DNA of 30,927 bases from Escherichia phage ESSI2_ev129: the sequence record NC_049394.1; one strand, given 5' to 3'. Position numbers and translations under genes: made by a program. The notes beneath the pieces are model-generated. The model worked only from the letters and a program-made list of their open reading frames with translations. It was not told where the DNA came from and searched no databases. Positions 17,297 through 29,677 of the stretch are shown here, piece after piece; position 1 is the first letter of the stretch; the number at the start of each line of letters is the position of its first letter.

Positions 17297-19072
17297 ATGG
17301 CTAAATACTCTGAAGAATTAAAAGGCGTTGTTCGCGCACTTTATCTGCGCCGCTATACGCCAAAGGAAATCGCATCTGAATTAAATCTGCCGAATGCGCG
17401 GATCGTTTACTACTGGGCGGAGAAATACAGCTGGGCGGATTTGCTCAGTTTTGAAAGCACAGAGGAAGCGATTGAACGCCGTTACCAGCTGCTGGCCAGC
17501 CGCGATAACAAAACAGATCTCGACCTAAAAGAAATGGACATGCTCATTGCTCATGCCACGAAACTGCGTGCGCAGAGTAATAAACACAAAGAGAAAATGG
17601 CCAGCGGTCAGAGTTCCGGGCAAGCAGCTGCGCGGGACAACAATGACGACGAACCGCGCAGCAAACGGAAGTACAGGAAAAACGATATTACCTCGCTGAC
17701 GCAGGAGGACTTTGACGCATGGGCTGAGGAACATCTTTTTGAATATCAGAAACACCTGCGCAATAACATTGGCCAGCTTGTAAGGAACATCCTGAAAAGC
17801 CGCCAGATCGGTGCGACCTGGTATTTTGCGTTTGAAGCGTTTGAAAACGCGGTGATGACCGGCGATCCGCAAATCTTTCTGTCAGCGTCAAAGGCTCAGG
17901 CTGAAGTGTTCCGGTCTTACATCGTGAATATTGCAGAGCAGTATTTCGGTATTACGCTGACCGGTAACCCGATCCGCTTAAGCAACGGCGCAGAACTGCG
18001 TTTTCTCTCCACCAACAAAAACACCGCCCAGTCCTACAGTGGCCACCTGTACTGTGACGAATATTTCTGGGTACCAAACTTTGCAAAACTTAACGAAGTG
18101 GCCAGCGCAATGGCCACGCATGACAAGTGGCGTACCACCTATTTTTCAACTCCATCGGCAAAAACGCACCAGGCGTACCCGTTCTGGACGGGCGATGAGT
18201 GGAAACAGGGCAGTAAAAAACGTGCGGCCATTAAGTTTCCTTCCTTTAACGAAATGCGTGACGGCGGGCGACTCTGCCCGGATGGGCAATGGCGCTACGT
18301 CATTACGATGGAAGATGCCATTGCGGGCGGTTTCAACCTGGCGAATATCGAGAAACTTCGCAACCGCTACAACGACGCCACTTTTAACATGCTCTATATG
18401 TGCGTGTTCGTTGACAGCAAAGATTCCGTTTTCAGCTTTTCCGACCTGGAAGCCTGCGGTGTTGAAATCGACACCTGGCAGGATCACAACCCTGATGCAG
18501 CGCGGCCATTCGGTGACAGGCCAGTCTGGGGCGGCTTTGACCCGGCTCGCAGCGGGGATTTGTCCTGTTTTGTCATCATCGCCCCGCCGATGCTCGCCGT
18601 GGAGAAGTTCCGCGTTCTGAAGGTGATTTACTGGAAAGGCATGAACTTCCGGTACCAGGCAAAACAGATCGAGCAGTTGTTCAAAAAATACAACTTCACT
18701 TATCTGGGTGTGGACGTTACCGGCATTGGCCAGGGTGTTTTTGACAACATTCAGCATTTTGCCATGCGCGTGGCCGTCCCTATTCGTTACGACCTGAACA
18801 CCAAAAATAAGCTGGTACTGAAAGCGGTGGACGTGGTGGAAAGCCAGCGTATTGAGTGGGATAAAAATTTGAAAGAGATCGCGGCCAGCTTTATGTCTGT
18901 GCGCCGAACCACCACACAAAGCGGCAACGCCATGACGTTTGTCGCTGACCGCAGCCAGGATACCGGCCACGCAGAGGCATTCTGGGCGATTACCCACGGT
19001 CTGCATAACGAACCCCTTAACTATGAAAACAAACCTAAATCCCGCTGGGGTGTAAGGAAAGAGGCAGCATGA
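17297..19072 (+). CDS. P: Terminase large (ATPase) subunit, P2 gpP-like
   Basis: 591 aa (P2 gpP is about 590 aa); ATG at 17297; divergent from O; stop overlaps the portal start (ATGA at 19069-19072). Confidence 0.85.
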   Translation: MAKYSEELKGVVRALYLRRYTPKEIASELNLPNARIVYYWAEKYSWADLLSFESTEEAIERRYQLLASRDNKTDLDLKEMDMLIAHATKLRAQSNKHKEKMASGQSSGQAAARDNNDDEPRSKRKYRKNDITSLTQEDFDAWAEEHLFEYQKHLRNNIGQLVRNILKSRQIGATWYFAFEAFENAVMTGDPQIFLSASKAQAEVFRSYIVNIAEQYFGITLTGNPIRLSNGAELRFLSTNKNTAQSYSGHLYCDEYFWVPNFAKLNEVASAMATHDKWRTTYFSTPSAKTHQAYPFWTGDEWKQGSKKRAAIKFPSFNEMRDGGRLCPDGQWRYVITMEDAIAGGFNLANIEKLRNRYNDATFNMLYMCVFVDSKDSVFSFSDLEACGVEIDTWQDHNPDAARPFGDRPVWGGFDPARSGDLSCFVIIAPPMLAVEKFRVLKVIYWKGMNFRYQAKQIEQLFKKYNFTYLGVDVTGIGQGVFDNIQHFAMRVAVPIRYDLNTKNKLVLKAVDVVESQRIEWDKNLKEIAASFMSVRRTTTQSGNAMTFVADRSQDTGHAEAFWAITHGLHNEPLNYENKPKSRWGVRKEAA

Positions 19073-20130
19073 GTAAAAAGAAACGCTTTGTTAAGCGCGA
19101 CCAGCGCGGCGACAAATCAAAAAAGATGAGCATTATCACTTTCGGCAAACCTGAACCTGTTCTGACTACCGGCACAGATTACCGTGATATCTGGTACGAC
19201 AATGCAGCCGATCACTTCACCCAGCCGATTGACCGACTGGCACTCGCGCAACTGATTAATCTTAACGGTCAGCACGGCGGCATCATTCACGCCCGTAAAA
19301 ACATGATTGTTTCAGACTACCAGGGGGGCGGGCTTATTCACGACCAACTGGAAGCAGCTGCGTTTGACTATATAACCTTTGGGGATATTGCGATTGCCAA
19401 AATTCGTAACGGCTGGGGTGACGTGATCGCACTTGAACCCTTGCCCGGTCTGTATATTCGCCGCCGCAAAGTCAGAGATAACGCCCTGGATAAGCCTGGT
19501 GACTACGTGGTGTTACAGGAAGGGGAACCGCAGGTATGGCCAGAAGAAGATATTATCTTCATCAAAATGTATGACCCGCAACAGCATATCTACGGACTGC
19601 CGGACTACATCGGCGGTGTGCATTCCGCGTTACTTAACAGTGAAGCGGTCATTTTCCGACGCCGCTATTACCACAACGGTGCGCACACAGGCGGTATTCT
19701 TTATACCCGCGATCCCAGCATGACGGACGAAATGGAGGAAGAAATTGAACAGCAGCTGCGTGACAGCAAAGGGATCGGTAACTTCTCCACCATCCTTGTA
19801 AACATTCCCGGTGGAGACGGCGACGCCATCAAATTCATTGAAATGGGGGATATTTCCGCAAAGGATGAATTTGCCAACATCAAGAACATCAGCGCCCAGG
19901 ACATTCTGAACGCTCACCGTTTCCCTGCCGGCCTCGCCGGTATTGTCCCACAGAACACTGCCGGACTGGGGGATGTTGAAAAGGCTGAACGCATTTACAA
20001 GAAAAGCGAAATAGCCCCCATCCAGCGCCGTTTCATGCTTGCCGTTAACAACGATCCCGAAATACCGGAAAGGCTACACCTTAACTTTGATTTAAGTTAC
20101 ACAGAATCAACGGATAAGGGTGCGGTATGA
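19069..20130 (+). CDS. Q: Portal protein, P2 gpQ-like
   Basis: 353 aa; AAGGAAAGAGG Shine-Dalgarno; translationally coupled to P. Order P-Q, divergent from O-N-M-L, is the P2 head-module layout. Confidence 0.85.
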   Translation: MSKKKRFVKRDQRGDKSKKMSIITFGKPEPVLTTGTDYRDIWYDNAADHFTQPIDRLALAQLINLNGQHGGIIHARKNMIVSDYQGGGLIHDQLEAAAFDYITFGDIAIAKIRNGWGDVIALEPLPGLYIRRRKVRDNALDKPGDYVVLQEGEPQVWPEEDIIFIKMYDPQQHIYGLPDYIGGVHSALLNSEAVIFRRRYYHNGAHTGGILYTRDPSMTDEMEEEIEQQLRDSKGIGNFSTILVNIPGGDGDAIKFIEMGDISAKDEFANIKNISAQDILNAHRFPAGLAGIVPQNTAGLGDVEKAERIYKKSEIAPIQRRFMLAVNNDPEIPERLHLNFDLSYTESTDKGAV

Positions 20131-20450
20131 GGCGAAACAGGCTAAAATCCAGGCATCATTTAACAGCTGGAGCATGGAATATGCGAGTTCTGAAAATCGA
20201 ATGCCCGGAATGCGGCTCAAAGGCTGTTATTCGTAAAACGAACAGAAAGCACCGGCAGATTGCTGATATTTACTGCGCCTGTTCAGATGTTGAGTGTGGC
20301 CATACGTTTGTTATGAATCTGACGTTCTCCCACACTCTTAGCCCCAGCGCTAAAACGGGTGATGCGATGGTGCAAAAAATACTGAATGCACTTTCACCCG
20401 ATCAGCGCCAGATGGCATTAGACCTACTGAAAGCGACTCCCGCCGCCTGA
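20127..20450 (+). CDS. Ogr/Delta-family zinc-finger late transcription activator
   Basis: Cys pattern CPEC-x19-YCACSDVECGHTF matches Ogr/Delta/186-B (CPxC...Y.C.C....C..TF). ATG 20127 overlaps the portal stop (ATGA); alternative start ATG 20181 with GGAG upstream gives an 89-aa product. Confidence 0.75.
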   Translation: MRRNRLKSRHHLTAGAWNMRVLKIECPECGSKAVIRKTNRKHRQIADIYCACSDVECGHTFVMNLTFSHTLSPSAKTGDAMVQKILNALSPDQRQMALDLLKATPAA

Positions 20451-20636
20451 AATGCCCCCATTACTGGGGGTTTTGTTTTCATACTCATCGAGCTTACTTT
20501 CCAGATCTGAAGTCAGTTCACTCAGCCAGGCAAGTGCTATGTCTTTCTCACAGCCGGTGCAATTACTTTTAGCTATAAGCCTTGTAAACAACGCAATCCG
20601 CTGCAATGCGATAGTTTCCAAAAACAAATCCTGCAC
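20424..20636 (-). CDS. Small ORF downstream of a LexA box (candidate SOS-induced antirepressor, Tum-like role; speculative)
   Basis: Track ORF is 20424..20684, but its ATG lies on the LexA box; preferred start GTG 20634-20636 (or ATG 20640-20642) with GGGAGG upstream. About 70 aa; 3' end overlaps the terminator hairpin, so the C-terminus is uncertain. Confidence 0.35.
   Translation of the reverse strand: MQDLFLETIALQRIALFTRLIAKSNCTGCEKDIALAWLSELTSDLESKLDEYENKTPSNGGISGGGSRFQ
20454..20479 (+). terminator. Rho-independent terminator after the P-Q-ogr operon
   Basis: G-CCCCC(20455-20459)-ATTACT-GGGGG(20466-20470) hairpin followed by TTTTGTTTT, 4 nt after the ogr-like stop. Confidence 0.7.
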
Positions 20637-20661
20637 AAGCATCCTCCCAAAAACAGAATAA

Positions 20662-20677
20662 CTGTATATAAACACAG
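20662..20677. promoter_or_regulatory. LexA (SOS) box
   Basis: CTGTATATAAACACAG is CTGT-N8-ACAG with an AT-rich spacer, flanked AA..TA, matching the LexA consensus TACTGTATATATATACAGTA. A TATACT -10-like hexamer overlaps its upstream half on the minus strand. Confidence 0.65.
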
Positions 20678-20757
20678 TATACATTTAAGCACAAAATGTG
20701 AAAGTGCTTTTTCCTGCCATCTACTGACAAATGAATGCCTTTCACATACTTACACCA

Positions 20758-22797
20758 CTACAACCACCCCGGCCACAGTTCCTGTAATGGCTCGTTTTGA
20801 GTCTCTTTAAGCCGCCCGTTGCGGTAAATCAGTGCGCCCTGACCAAATTTCAAACCACTCCCCCGCAGGAGAATGGCTATTTCTTCATCAGAACCATCAA
20901 AACCCCGACTGCGTAATTCCAGTTTTAACCGTCTGCGGGTTCCCCCCTCCGTACAGTTATTGACAGAACTCCAAGGGGCGGCGTTGCCGCCAGAAAAACC
21001 CGCCTCCGCTGGCGCTTCGGCCAGTTTCGCTACCTTCTGCCACTTCACCAAGCGCGTACATACCTCGGAATCTGGAACCAATGGAGAATAGACGCCCTGA
21101 ACACGCTGCACGTCCTCTGCGTATTCGTTTCCCTGTTCCGTAATTTCATAGGCCAGGCGAACAACCAGATCACGGCGGGGAACCAGTGCACCGCCCTGCG
21201 CCTGGGTATATGCAGCCCAGTCCCCGACATCAGCAGCGGCCAGAACCGCATCCATTCTGCGATCTGCCAGTACCTGATCCCGCAAACGACGCAGCTCACG
21301 CCAGACAGTTACCGGCGCACCACCAATCTGTTGAAACTGGCGAATACGCCAGCGTGAAGCCCACGCGGAAACGGACTTAGCCATATCACGCAGATTTTCG
21401 CCGGTTTCTTCGTCCTGCTCACCATCCAGCGCAAAACCATCAATATTTTTTGAAATGTATTTCGCGATGTAGCCCGTGGCCGAACCTTTGGCGGGATCGA
21501 TAGCTTCAACATGAAAACGCGCCTTCAGCGCCTTTTCAGATTGAAGTTCTTCAGAATCGGTAATTCTGGCGTGATAACAAAGAATATCGCGTACCGTGTC
21601 CACGTCCTGCGGACGCATAAAAAGCAACATATGCCAGTGCGGTGTCCCGTCATGGTGAGGCTCAACAACCCGAAACCCAAATACATGGATACCAGCACGC
21701 GAGATCGCTGCACGCGCTTTTGCCCATACGCCGCATAAATAGCGCTGGGTATCCTGCGGCGTACTTCCATCCCATTGCGATACAAAGCCACCTTTGCTGT
21801 GTACCGCATGGAAACGTGATGGTGCGGTGATGGTGTAAAACTCACCGGCCAGCCCTTCTTCATTTGCCATATCTTCAAACCCTCGCATTCTTACCATTAG
21901 CTCACAGCGACGGATCGCCGGATTTGCAACGCTGCGGTGTACCATGCTGTCCAGTGCAATGCGCAGCCCTTCATCATTCAGCAGATCAAACTTTTTAAAG
22001 AACTCCAGATTCCGCTTTTTCTGGTCTATCCATTCACCCAGTGTTTTGCGGGATACATAAGCGCTGGCCGCTTTTTGCACCTGCCCCACCGCGATGGCCA
22101 TGTGTTCGCGCTGCGTATCACGCGCACGTTTAAGACGCAGGTACCACCATTCCGGCGCCATCATGCGCAGTATCCCGGATTCCGCCTTACGCATTTCCAG
22201 TTGGCCTTCATTGGCCTCATGTTCAGCCCAGTACGGCGGCTGGTTATTCAGCATCAGGCAACATGCACAAAGATGTCGGTATGATTCCAGGGTGCGGCGA
22301 TACAGCTCTCTGGCGTCGTCAGTGCCGGAATCAAACTGTTCGGTGAAGTCATAAAGTGACTGGGAAATCCAGCCAGATACCTGGCCAGCCAGTTTTTTAA
22401 GATCAGGACGGTCTAGTGACGGCAAGCGCTCCAGCGACTTACCAAAAGGAAGATCAGCAGCATCAGCGGCCAGCGAGTAACGCGCAGCCACTTTTCGCAG
22501 ACGTGGCAATACACTCCCGCCGATGGTCTGGCGCAGGAATGTATTGGCACGGCGACGCCCGTCACGACCAGCAAAAAGCTTTTCATAGCGACGGCCAAAA
22601 TACCCGGCTAACCAGTCGGGTATCTCATGCAGGTACCGGGATCGCCATTCATAATCCTGCGGGTTTACAGCCCACAGGCGGCGTTCTGTGATTGTCGCGT
22701 CTGCCGGTGTACCAGGCGCAAAGGTTTCACGCCGCCAGGCATCGACGGCGTGATGTTGCCCCAGCTCTTGATGAAGGAAATCAGTATGCTCAGGCAT
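20758..22797 (-). CDS. A: Replication initiation protein (P2 gpA-like rolling-circle initiator/nickase)
   Basis: 679 aa; contains the tyrosine active-site-like segment SATGYIAKYISKNIDG characteristic of the gpA family; ATG 22795-22797 overlaps the upstream methyltransferase stop by 8 nt. Confidence 0.85.
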   Translation of the reverse strand: MPEHTDFLHQELGQHHAVDAWRRETFAPGTPADATITERRLWAVNPQDYEWRSRYLHEIPDWLAGYFGRRYEKLFAGRDGRRRANTFLRQTIGGSVLPRLRKVAARYSLAADAADLPFGKSLERLPSLDRPDLKKLAGQVSGWISQSLYDFTEQFDSGTDDARELYRRTLESYRHLCACCLMLNNQPPYWAEHEANEGQLEMRKAESGILRMMAPEWWYLRLKRARDTQREHMAIAVGQVQKAASAYVSRKTLGEWIDQKKRNLEFFKKFDLLNDEGLRIALDSMVHRSVANPAIRRCELMVRMRGFEDMANEEGLAGEFYTITAPSRFHAVHSKGGFVSQWDGSTPQDTQRYLCGVWAKARAAISRAGIHVFGFRVVEPHHDGTPHWHMLLFMRPQDVDTVRDILCYHARITDSEELQSEKALKARFHVEAIDPAKGSATGYIAKYISKNIDGFALDGEQDEETGENLRDMAKSVSAWASRWRIRQFQQIGGAPVTVWRELRRLRDQVLADRRMDAVLAAADVGDWAAYTQAQGGALVPRRDLVVRLAYEITEQGNEYAEDVQRVQGVYSPLVPDSEVCTRLVKWQKVAKLAEAPAEAGFSGGNAAPWSSVNNCTEGGTRRRLKLELRSRGFDGSDEEIAILLRGSGLKFGQGALIYRNGRLKETQNEPLQELWPGWL

Positions 22798-23800
22798 ACT
22801 GTCCCCCCATCAAGTAGGCTTTTATAAAAGCTGTCGCAGCTTCTGCATTCAGGGCGTTGCCATAGGTTCTAATTCGTCCCACTCTGGAGGAAGCCCCATT
22901 AACCAGAGGCTTAAGGCCGGATTTAATTGGCCTCCACTTTCCATCTCTGCACAGAAGCCAGTCAGCATCTTTCCAGAAGCCGTTAACCGCACCGGCCCCG
23001 CTATCTGAGCAACCACATCCAGCCTGTCTATCGACAGCTTGCCATTGCGAATCCTCCCCCCAGAATATCCGCCCTTGTGATCGCTCGCTGTTGGAGTCGG
23101 CCAGCCCGCTAACCTCGCCGCGCCGCCAAGCGTTGTACCTCGCTTCGGATGGTTTGCTGCCGCCCCCTCTCCTGAAATTTGATTGTTGTCCTGTGTAGTT
23201 GGAGTTGGCCACCCTGCAAGTTGAACCGCTGTTTGCAAGTTCAATCCCCCTTGACGGCCTGCATTGCTGGGATGTTTCCATGCATTCGCTGTCGGTGTTG
23301 GCCACCCAGTAAGTTCTGTCTCTGATATTCGGCGCACCGACGCTCGCAGCCGGAAACGCACACGCCCCGAAGGCATAGCCCATTGCTTCCATGTCAGCTT
23401 GTACAAGGTCGATCCAGTCGTTTGCGTGAGCACTCGCAGATTGCTCGCCAAAGATAACGAGAGGGCGGCGCTGCCCGACCAGCCAATGCATGGCGGGCCA
23501 TAAGTGCCGCTCATCAGCAAACCCTTTTCCTTTGCCTGCCGCGCTGAAAGGTTGGCATGGACATGATCCCGACCAGACTGGTTTATCTTCTGGCCATCCA
23601 GCACGGCGCAGGGCATATGACCAAACTCCAATCCCTGCAAAGAAATGGACTTGAGTGAATCCTCGCAAGTCGTCTGGATGGACATCTTCAATACTCCTTT
23701 CATCAACTTCACCGGCCATAATGCGACCGGCAGAAATATGCGTACGCAGTCGCTCTGCCGCAAACGGATCAATTTCGTTGTAATATGCGGAAGGTTTCAT
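22790..23800 (-). CDS. DNA (cytosine-5) methyltransferase, with a two-frame anomaly in its central region
   Basis: This frame carries motif I (FFAGIGVW), motif IV (GSCPCQPFSAAGKG), motifs VII-VIII (EAMGYAFG..GAPNIRDRTYWVA) and a motif-X-like C-terminus (YGNALNAEAATAFIKAYL). ATGA overlap with the Dam stop. A second same-strand frame (22849..23772) holds a triplicated LAGWPTPT module; see findings. Confidence 0.7.
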   Translation of the reverse strand: MKPSAYYNEIDPFAAERLRTHISAGRIMAGEVDERSIEDVHPDDLRGFTQVHFFAGIGVWSYALRRAGWPEDKPVWSGSCPCQPFSAAGKGKGFADERHLWPAMHWLVGQRRPLVIFGEQSASAHANDWIDLVQADMEAMGYAFGACAFPAASVGAPNIRDRTYWVANTDSECMETSQQCRPSRGIELANSGSTCRVANSNYTGQQSNFRRGGGSKPSEARYNAWRRGEVSGLADSNSERSQGRIFWGEDSQWQAVDRQAGCGCSDSGAGAVNGFWKDADWLLCRDGKWRPIKSGLKPLVNGASSRVGRIRTYGNALNAEAATAFIKAYLMGGQYA

Positions 23801-27036: not shown

Positions 27037-27540
27037 TCACATCAGGCCGGTGGCGTTGGTTGTGACCAGATCCACCGCAGCGGCCAGAACTGGCGCAGAG
27101 TGAATACGGCTTTCAACGGTATAAGCCAGCACGGATAAGCTACGGATTGCATCGCGGGCACGATCCAGAATTTGAGTACGGCGGGCGGCGGTCATATGGC
27201 CAGTTGATACGGCTTCCCCAGCAATCGCGCCCACACACGCAGTAGCGCTCAACGCGCAAAATTGCATGTTGGCTTCAGTGGCGTTATTGACTGGAACGGA
27301 GGGCAAGCAGTTAATCTGCCCCAGCATCCCATCAAGTAAACGAGCATCTTCCGTGTAATCGGTGATAGCCAGCAGCTCGTCACAGGTCAGGCGGTGCGGT
27401 TGAACCGGGTTCAACTTATTGCGCAGGATCTGCGGACGCATACCAACGGCAGCGGCCACATCTTCCAGATTGTGCGACAGCGCAAACGCTCGGCAAGCTG
27501 CATCAAAATGTGCATGTTTGGAAGTTTGGTAATCAAACAT
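27037..27540 (-). CDS. cII: Phage regulatory protein CII (186-type lysogeny establishment factor)
   Basis: Track start is a GTG; refined to ATG 27538-27540. N-terminus MFDYQTSKHAHFDAACRAFALSHN..LRNKLNPVQPHRLTCDELLAITDYTED parallels 186 CII; 167 aa. Confidence 0.75.
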   Translation of the reverse strand: MFDYQTSKHAHFDAACRAFALSHNLEDVAAAVGMRPQILRNKLNPVQPHRLTCDELLAITDYTEDARLLDGMLGQINCLPSVPVNNATEANMQFCALSATACVGAIAGEAVSTGHMTAARRTQILDRARDAIRSLSVLAYTVESRIHSAPVLAAAVDLVTTNATGLM

Positions 27541-27572
27541 AGTCAGCACCCTCTCTGCGTTTCAAAATCGAA

Positions 27573-27794
27573 TCAGTTAAGTACGATGTTGCAACCCGCG
27601 AGGGCGTCTATGGTCAGAGCCGCGATATTGATCATGACTTTTTCACGCCCCATATCTTTGCGAAGGCGGTGACGAGGCAAGCGGCCATCTTTCAACATCG
27701 CTTCAACGGTATCTTCTGGTAAACCAGTGAGTTCGATGTATTTCTCTTTTGAGATAGAAGGGACGGGTAGATTGATTGAAATGTTAGTGGTCAT
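27573..27794 (-). CDS. Apl/Cox-family excisionase-repressor (tentative)
   Basis: 73 aa, first gene of the leftward early operon, immediately upstream of cII and divergent from cI, as apl in 186 / cox in P2. GAGGAA Shine-Dalgarno. Confidence 0.55.
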   Translation of the reverse strand: MTTNISINLPVPSISKEKYIELTGLPEDTVEAMLKDGRLPRHRLRKDMGREKVMINIAALTIDALAGCNIVLN

Positions 27795-27929: not shown

Positions 27930-28550
27930 ATGGATCTCAAAAACGGAGGCCAGGCAGTTATAACCAGGCTCCTTGAAGCTTATGGATTTAAGACAAGGCA
28001 GGCTTTATGCGACCAATTGAAAGTATCAACAAGCACCATGGGAACGAGATGGATGCGTGATGTATTCCCAGCTGACTGGGTTATACAGTGCACAATCGAA
28101 ACTGGTGCATCAGTAGAATGGCTATCGTTCGGAACAGGCGAGAAATTTCCCAACGGAACCAGCAAAAACGCAAATGAGAATGAAGATTCCGCAAATGAGA
28201 ACTTGTTAGGTGATGTTGTTTCTGTTACCCGAAAAAAGGTAATAGATGGAAATTTATACGATTCTAATTTTTACATGCTCGACAAAGCCATGCTCCCATC
28301 CCACCTCAGCAAACCCATTATTATTGTGGATGATGATGTCAGCTACTTAGCCGAGCAGAAAAATGATGAATTAACAGACGGTACATGGCTTGTTGAAATT
28401 GAAGGGCAAGTGAGCATAAAAGAGCTAATACGCATTCCAGTAGGCAGGGTTCGTGTAACCTCAGTGCCTGGTAGCGCTAGTTTTGAGTGCGGTATTGATG
28501 ACTTAAAACCTATCGCAAAATGCCACTACTACCTGCTGACAGATGTTTGA
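27930..28550 (+). CDS. cI: CI-type immunity repressor (186 CI-like; no LexA-like autocleavage domain evident)
   Basis: 206 aa; N-terminal helix-turn-helix-like region (..QALCDQLKVSTSTMGTRWMRDVFPADWVIQ..); no Ala-Gly / Ser-Lys S24 peptidase motifs recognised; upstream of int on the same strand. Confidence 0.7.
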   Translation: MDLKNGGQAVITRLLEAYGFKTRQALCDQLKVSTSTMGTRWMRDVFPADWVIQCTIETGASVEWLSFGTGEKFPNGTSKNANENEDSANENLLGDVVSVTRKKVIDGNLYDSNFYMLDKAMLPSHLSKPIIIVDDDVSYLAEQKNDELTDGTWLVEIEGQVSIKELIRIPVGRVRVTSVPGSASFECGIDDLKPIAKCHYYLLTDV

Positions 28551-28627
28551 TCGAGAGTGAAACAAACATTGACACTGTATAAATAAACAGTAAATCATAC
28601 CCTATAGCAAGTAATAAGGGGTATTGA

Positions 28628-29677
28628 ATGGCTATTCGTAAACTTGAAACGGGTAAATGGCTCTGTGAATGCTACCCTTCCGGACGTTCTGGGCGCAGGG
28701 TACGAAAACAATTTGCAACCAAAGGTGAGGCAATGGCCTTTGAGCGCCACACAATGGATGAAGCCGCGTCTAAACCGTGGCTGGGGGATGTTGTTGATCG
28801 CCGCTCTTTAAAAGACATTGTAAACCTCTGGTATAAACTGCATGGCATATCTCTTACGGCTGGCGAACACGTATATGAAAAACTACTGCTGATCGTGGAC
28901 GCACTAGGAAACCCTCTGGCTACATCGCTAACCCCAAAAATGTTTGCTCATTACCGCGATAAACGCCTAACCGGAGAGATTTATTTCAGCGAAAAATGGA
29001 AGAATGGCGCTAGCCCTGTAACGGTTAATCTTGAGCAAAGTTATTTAAGCGGTGCCTTTAGTGAACTGATTCGCTTGGGCGAATGGCTTCAGCCAAACCC
29101 TCTTGAAAACATGCGAAAATTTACCATTGCTGAAAAGGAAATGGCCTGGCTGACACATGAACAGATTGCTGAACTTCTGTATGACTGCCAGCGTCAGAAC
29201 AAGCTGTTGACGCTGGTTGTGAAGATTTGCCTCAGTACAGGAGCAAGGTGGAGAGAGGCCGTCAATCTGACAAGGTCTCAGGTAACGAAGTACCGCATCA
29301 CTTTCACCAGAACGAAGGGAAAGAAAAACAGAAGCATCCCTATTAGCAAGGAGCTATATGAAGAGATCACCGTGCTGAAGGGGTTTAAGTTTTTTGATGA
29401 TTACTATTTTCAATTTGCATCAGTGATGGATAAAACTTCCATCATTCTGCCGCGAGGCCAGCTAACGCACGTTCTTCGCCACACCTTTGCTGCTCACTTT
29501 ATGATGTCCGGAGGAAACATACTCGCCCTTCAAAAAATACTGGGGCACCACGATATAAAAATGACTATGCGCTATGCCCACCTCGCGCCAGATCACCTTG
29601 AAACTGCGTTAAGGTTTAACCCCTTAGCTACTATGCAAAATGGCGACAAAATGGCGGCAGCGGTTGCCACTCCCTAA
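28628..29677 (+). CDS. int: Tyrosine integrase (P2/186 family)
   Basis: 349 aa. Catalytic signature ..HVLRHTFAAHF.. (H-x-x-R) and ..MRYAHLAPDH (Tyr) near the C-terminus; TGARWREAV region (Arg box). Confidence 0.85.
   Translation: MAIRKLETGKWLCECYPSGRSGRRVRKQFATKGEAMAFERHTMDEAASKPWLGDVVDRRSLKDIVNLWYKLHGISLTAGEHVYEKLLLIVDALGNPLATSLTPKMFAHYRDKRLTGEIYFSEKWKNGASPVTVNLEQSYLSGAFSELIRLGEWLQPNPLENMRKFTIAEKEMAWLTHEQIAELLYDCQRQNKLLTLVVKICLSTGARWREAVNLTRSQVTKYRITFTRTKGKKNRSIPISKELYEEITVLKGFKFFDDYYFQFASVMDKTSIILPRGQLTHVLRHTFAAHFMMSGGNILALQKILGHHDIKMTMRYAHLAPDHLETALRFNPLATMQNGDKMAAAVATP

Follow-up and report, generated by a model that had tools for sequence, protein, structure and literature searches.

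The locus analyzed here raises the question of how a prophage with a CI repressor that lacks a self-cleavage domain could respond to DNA damage, and whether its SOS operon could consist of a single small gene. The window, i.e. the whole stretch of 30,927 nt from Escherichia phage ESSI2_ev129 (NC_049394.1), is a P2/186-like (Peduoviridae) prophage, and the region around the small open reading frame (ORF) in question is 97% identical to Escherichia phage ESSI2_ev040 of the genus Quadragintavirus. [quoted passage not shown] The analysis presented below indicates that the SOS operon of this prophage has probably been reduced to one gene, which would encode a LexA-controlled short Tum antirepressor of the 186-type CI.

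Tum of 186 is reported to bind CI and to prevent operator binding (Shearwin et al. 1998, as cited in PMC3121763). It comprises an antirepressor fused to DinI, and the gene is split in Fels-2 and PSP3 (PMC3121763), with the antirepressor activity of PSP3 located in the upstream gene (personal communication cited in PMC3121763). In DuoHS, in-frame deletion of tum (ECHS_RS04495) and a lexA(Ind-) allele each abolish mitomycin C induction (PMC12055606). Small LexA-controlled proteins encoded outside the immunity region, including GfoA and GftA of the Gifsy phages and AntC of N15, inactivate repressors that do not cleave themselves, and some such antirepressors (as reported for some of the Gifsy ones) act on non-cognate repressors (PMC3121763). 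The module of the window follows the same logic, whereas the repressor families differ.

Gene order around the small ORF

The genes of the window that are considered in this study are listed below.

17297-19072, plus strand: terminase P
19069-20130, plus strand: portal Q
20181-20450, plus strand: ogr/Delta-like late activator gene (Pfam Ogr_Delta, 9e-20; annotated in ESSI2_ev040)
20424-20636, stop codon included, minus strand: candidate short tum-type antirepressor gene, 70 aa, GTG start (phrog_698, 7e-18)
20758-22797, minus strand: replication gene A
Between gene A and cII in gene order: early genes
27037-27549, minus strand: cII
27573-27794, minus strand: apl/cox
27930-28550, plus strand: 186-type CI repressor, presumed target of the antirepressor (Pfam Phage_CI_repr, 6e-25; Phage_CI_C, 3e-29)
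28628-29677, plus strand: int

The small ORF is located directly downstream of gene A on the same (minus) strand and outside the immunity region, and the order of gene A followed by a tum-type gene is common to 186, Fels-2, DuoHS, PSP3 and one Klebsiella phage. What follows the tum-type gene differs among them. A separate DinI (TumB-like) gene stands directly downstream in Fels-2 and DuoHS, as a DinI gene also does in the Klebsiella phage, whereas the window has no DinI gene and its ORF continues as a 15-residue tail through the ogr terminator. In 186 itself a DinI-like C-terminal half forms part of the 146-aa Tum, and orf97 is the next gene. The arrangement is split in PSP3: a TumA of 60 aa, with the annotation 'UV induction of prophage', is encoded after gene A, and the DinI gene tumB is retained.

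A predicted LexA operator and p95-like promoter

The following signals were assigned to the small ORF.

20697-20702, minus strand: -35 hexamer TTCACA of a p95-like promoter, the same hexamer as the annotated -35 of 186 p95 (assigned from sequence only)
20674-20679, minus strand: -10 hexamer TACTGT, inside the LexA operator, matching the annotated -10 of 186 p95 in hexamer and position
20660-20679: predicted LexA operator (SOS box), with the core CTGT-N8-ACAG at 20662-20677, CTGTATATAAACACAG
20643-20648, minus strand: Shine-Dalgarno sequence GGGAGG, separated from the GTG at 20636 by 6 nt

The 20-mer at 20660-20679 deviates from the E. coli consensus TACTGTATATATATACAGTA at 3 of 20 positions. 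A match of such quality was obtained in none of 100 dinucleotide-preserving shuffles, compared with two in the window, and the pattern CTGT-N8-ACAG occurs twice in the window against an expectation of 0.35. The approximate heterology index was 1.4 for this box, 2.9 for a box before int and 11.4 for the next best 20-mer of the window, values which are indicative only, being derived from an approximate matrix of E. coli LexA sites. In each of the 40 related loci (one from a genome collection and 39 from viral contigs) CTGT-N8-ACAG stands at a constant distance from the start codon, and this core, the Shine-Dalgarno sequence and the start codon itself are all retained amid drifting flanks. In an alignment of 15 sequences, comprising 14 representatives and 186, CTGT...TATACAGT is invariant, and the spacer of the box and its upstream flank vary freely. 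The near-consensus LexA box of the first-pass annotation is thus confirmed as a strong, non-random predicted operator over the tum-type promoter. Its distance from the ORF, formerly given as about 26-40 nt, is 26-41 nt when measured from the GTG at 20636. At this promoter a single LexA box is present in the window and its close relatives, whereas two overlapping LexA-like boxes with a 15-nt offset are present at the tum promoters of DuoHS (locus L046, 19559-19593) and Fels-2 (locus L045, 25854-25888).

On the minus strand the signals are arranged as TTCACA (20702-20697), a 17-nt spacer, TACTGT (20679-20674), GGGAGG (20648-20643), an ATG (20642) and the GTG (20636). The experimentally defined p95-tum region of 186 shows the same layout, i.e. 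TTCACA, 18 nt, TACTGT inside the LexA site, GGAGG and GTG, the spacer being one of 17 nt in the window. TTCACA-like hexamers are kept in the relatives and TACTGT in most of them. A different hexamer, TATACT (20681-20676), had been proposed as the -10 element; it does overlap the box, but it is not kept in the relatives, and TACTGT, common to 186 p95 and most relatives, takes its place. No promoter was reported at this operator by a generic sigma-70 scan that requires at least four of six positions in each hexamer, because TACTGT matches at three of six positions only. The GGGAGG sequence named earlier as the Shine-Dalgarno element holds, as GGAGG-like motifs recur across the aligned relatives with two invariant G positions.

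Extent, selection and predicted structure of the small ORF

In most relatives GGAGG is followed after 5-6 nt by GTG or ATG and then CAG-GAT, mostly without an upstream ATG. From this pattern the start was placed at the GTG at 20636, giving a 70-aa product that begins MQDLF. At least 90% of the aligned sequences share the start region (T)GCAGGA, and one base of the first codons is invariant. An 86-aa version with an ATG start, as annotated in ESSI2_ev040, was rejected as too long, for its start is placed upstream of the operator, and its match to the family profiles begins only at residue 17.

Codons 2-55 are under strong purifying selection, with dN/dS of 0.03-0.16 (median about 0.11). The tail (residues 56-70; 20424-20471) gave a dN/dS of about 1.6 with a very low dS, and corresponds to the plus-strand terminator hairpin (20454-20471) and the last ogr codons read in antisense, so that its conserved 'GG.SGGGS.FQ' pattern reflects constraint on the opposite strand, not a functional peptide motif. 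An AlphaFold2 model built with the family alignment (mean pLDDT 83) has helices at residues 2-23 and 28-55, a conserved Cys in the loop between them and a disordered tail (56-70). The functional unit is thus a core of 55 residues, with two predicted helices, comparable with the 62-aa proteins of Fels-2 and DuoHS. Foldseek comparison of the model with the PDB returned generic helical hairpins only, none at an E value of 0.001 or better.

Homology to the antirepressor part of Tum

Searches of the PHROGs assigned the ORF to phrog_698 (7e-18) and phrog_8554 (3e-7), both of 'unknown function', and the N-terminal 44 residues of 186 Tum were found to match the same two families (1e-11 and 2e-5, respectively). 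An exhaustive profile search recovered 83 representative homologues at E below 1e-3, nearly all of 55-75 residues, and a profile of 57 family sequences aligned with residues 4-46 of 186 Tum with an hhalign probability of 95% (E 3.9e-8). The invariant Trp37 of the family is Leu in 186 Tum. Since pairwise BLASTP of the ORF gave no alignment with 186 Tum, the homology to it is at the level of profiles only; nor was any obtained with PSP3 TumA, the similarity of which to the family is marginal (hhalign probability 12%, E 0.002, same register). Two closer relatives are DuoHS tum (ECHS_RS04495 of E. coli HS) and STM2728 of Fels-2, each of 62 aa and each 51% identical to the ORF over 53 residues (residues 1-53; E 1e-18 and 2e-18, respectively). 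Both resemble the window in the position of the gene after gene A, in having LexA box(es) on the promoter and in their 186-type CI partner.

Judged by these profile and sequence matches, the product of the small ORF is truly homologous to the antirepressor portion of Tum. It had been described as a candidate antirepressor much shorter than 186 Tum; the matches to DuoHS tum, STM2728 and the 186 Tum profile support the candidacy, but the protein does not represent a new kind, as the short form was already known. The ORF is that short or split form (TumA-like, as in Fels-2, PSP3 and DuoHS) without a DinI partner, previously unannotated in this phage group.

The full-length architecture of 186 Tum (antirepressor plus DinI) is absent, the next gene being the convergent ogr; the ORF has no DinI match, and tblastn with the whole 186 Tum found nothing in the window or the 40 related loci. 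No significant match or model for the ORF was found in Pfam or NCBIfam, and no named antirepressor family was returned by the family, profile and homologue searches with it. A subthreshold Pfam hit to zf_C2HC_14 (E 0.02; 15 bits, cutoff 25) was discarded, as C28 is the only Cys that is invariant in close relatives and none is invariant family-wide. The ORF is hypothetical or unannotated in public records, and the same applies to E. coli, in which the tum-type gene is rare (23 of 5426 complete genomes).

The CI repressor and its pairing with the small protein

That CI lacks S24 autocleavage motifs, like 186 CI, had been noted from the sequence, and the domain searches bear this out: the protein has the Pfam domains Phage_CI_repr and Phage_CI_C, the same two as 186 CI, and no match to Peptidase_S24 at E values up to 0.1. 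Window CI is 29% identical to 186 CI and 42% identical to DuoHS CI, and all 36 relatives that cover the immunity region have a 186-type CI. Because such a CI is without a self-cleavage domain, some antirepressor is required.

The small-protein cluster of the window, the core of which is at least 85% identical among its members, occurs alongside nine CI clusters whose mutual identity is 29-75%, and a second small-protein cluster occurs alongside six. No co-variation between the small protein and CI was detected (Mantel r 0.10). As a cognate antirepressor would be expected to co-vary with its repressor, this counts against a strictly cognate one; either a conserved CI surface is recognised with broad specificity or the two proteins are paired less strictly than the model supposes. 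A near-identical protein that occurs with at least nine CI immunity types would, as a generalist, have to recognise a conserved surface of the 186-type CI. The N-terminal helix-turn-helix domain is the best conserved part across CI types.

In the related loci (L003-L041), CI lies about 5-7.6 kb upstream of the small ORF, and the immunity region and the tum-like gene have been shuffled independently.

Overlap with the ogr terminator

20454-20480, plus strand: intrinsic terminator for P-Q-ogr transcription, embedded in the codons for the tail of the small protein

The small ORF is convergent with the ogr-like gene and overlaps its 3' end by 27 nt. The terminator, which has textbook features on the plus strand, consists of a seven-pair G+C-rich stem (hairpin 20454-20471) with TTTTGTTTT after it; in the minus-strand direction the hairpin leads into CAUUUCAGG, not a U-tract, and only weak terminator-like sites lie beyond. 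The earlier statement that the small ORF converges on the P-Q-ogr terminator is therefore correct, and the ORF in fact runs through the hairpin. To reach the stop codon, its mRNA has to extend through the hairpin and over 27 nt of ogr, so that some antisense transcription into ogr is unavoidable once the gene is transcribed. That SOS would drive antisense transcription into ogr, as also suggested in the first-pass annotation, is plausible from this arrangement.

A second LexA box upstream of int

28569-28598, plus strand: second candidate SOS promoter, with TTGACA (28569), LexA box CTGTATAAATAAACAG (28575-28590) and AATCAT (28593-28598)

This strong box, outside the interval of the first-pass annotation, lies between a perfect TTGACA and a weak -10 hexamer, about 30 nt upstream of the int start codon at 28628. 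Nine loci with the same int type all carry the proximal part ACATTGACACTGT unchanged, amid diverging flanks; at the distal half-site eight of them have ACAGT and one (L025) has CCAGT. DuoHS likewise has a similar box ahead of int, and none was found before int in 186 or Fels-2. The arrangement suggests that the supply of integrase may be SOS-controlled. A limited literature search found no description of such an SOS-controlled int promoter.

Proposed mechanism and alternative explanations

From the operator, its conservation and the homology to Tum we infer LexA binding, SOS-dependent transcription and an interaction of the small protein with CI. Host LexA, when bound in the lysogen to the operator at 20660-20679, would cover the -10 hexamer TACTGT, so that the gene would be silent. 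After DNA damage, activated RecA would promote self-cleavage of LexA and the promoter would fire, yielding the 70-residue protein with its predicted two-helix hairpin in the first 55 residues. By homology with Tum of 186, DuoHS and Fels-2, this protein would bind the 186-type CI and stop its binding to DNA, and with CI off, the early lytic promoter would be free for the production of Apl/Cox, CII and the replication functions. The second LexA-controlled promoter, before int, would probably supply integrase for excision at the same time.

The least probable of the competing explanations, and a highly improbable one, is that the LexA-like palindrome is an AT-rich motif that arose by chance or that the small ORF is no real gene. 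The blank promoter scan at the operator and the hypothetical or unannotated status of the ORF in public records would fit such an explanation, but it is refuted by conservation, as CTGT-N8-ACAG persists in 40 of 40 loci despite diverged flanks; the failure of all 100 shuffles to match, the 83 representative homologues at E below 1e-3 and the purifying selection on the core also speak against it. The ORF being a gene, its promoter might still have an antisense RNA as its main output, which would run across the terminator into ogr and Q and let SOS tune the late genes, the peptide being secondary. The obligatory passage of the transcript through the hairpin and 27 nt of ogr, the lack of a good minus-strand terminator for several hundred nt beyond and the retention of the convergent ogr overlap across the clade can all be cited in its favor. 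However, the core codons are under strong purifying selection (dN/dS about 0.11), and Fels-2, DuoHS and Klebsiella phages encode the same protein where no convergent ogr is present and a DinI gene comes next. Antisense effects may be an added consequence, but they cannot explain a conserved protein, and we consider this explanation very unlikely.

More weight, although it too is unlikely, was given to the proposal that the gene is LexA-controlled and its product is not an antirepressor, so that it would modulate the SOS response, replication or cell division while induction takes another route. The occurrence of a near-identical protein with many CI immunity types and without co-variation is in line with this proposal, as is the fact that the DuoHS deletion phenotype does not by itself show CI binding. 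On the other side, the ORF is homologous to the very part of Tum that carries the antirepressor, deletion of the DuoHS homologue abolishes induction (PMC12055606), and a CI without a self-cleavage domain requires some antirepressor, for which the window offers no other LexA-controlled candidate except the int promoter. The short Tum antirepressor remains the preferred explanation on these grounds.

An extension of the antirepressor model, which we put forward tentatively and consider doubtful as it stands, is that the short Tum of this clade is a generalist antirepressor and that SOS would control derepression, excision and possibly the timing of late genes through three inputs. These would be the short Tum itself, the conserved LexA-controlled int promoter and the tum mRNA, which is necessarily antisense to the ogr terminator. 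If the protein were indeed a generalist, one SOS-induced prophage could cross-induce heteroimmune 186-like neighbours.

Implications for related phages and prophages

These results assign a probable function to a gene listed as 'hypothetical' or of 'unknown function' in ESSI-2-like (Quadragintavirus) phages and prophages and in the PHROG families 698 and 8554, and the assignment reaches RefSeq genomes of E. coli, Salmonella, Citrobacter and Klebsiella. Prophages that carry the short tum-type gene are predicted to be SOS-inducible. A minimal Tum module of 55 residues and two helices, without DinI, is also defined, which makes the short Tum a convenient subject for mapping the recognition between Tum and CI. 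The mixed pairing with CI types and the LexA box before int provide leads on cross-induction and on the coupling of excision to SOS, respectively.

Other features of the window

In P2 and 186, cos is located between Q and the SOS-operon end of the genome. A search of the whole window for a cos site of the P2 or 186 type yielded no convincing match. As ogr and the small ORF fill the corresponding interval (20130-20760), this clade would have its packaging site elsewhere or one unlike that of P2. Rfam and tRNA scans returned no matches.

An extra gene of 336 aa (22790-23800, minus strand) is present between gene A and a Dam-type methylase, apparently without a counterpart in the ESSI2_ev040 annotation. 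A 307-aa ORF without a Pfam match (22849-23772) occupies nearly the same span on the same strand in another frame. The 336-aa gene itself has a partial match to C5-cytosine methyltransferases (Pfam DNA_methylase, 1.5e-11), which covers profile positions 66-167 only.
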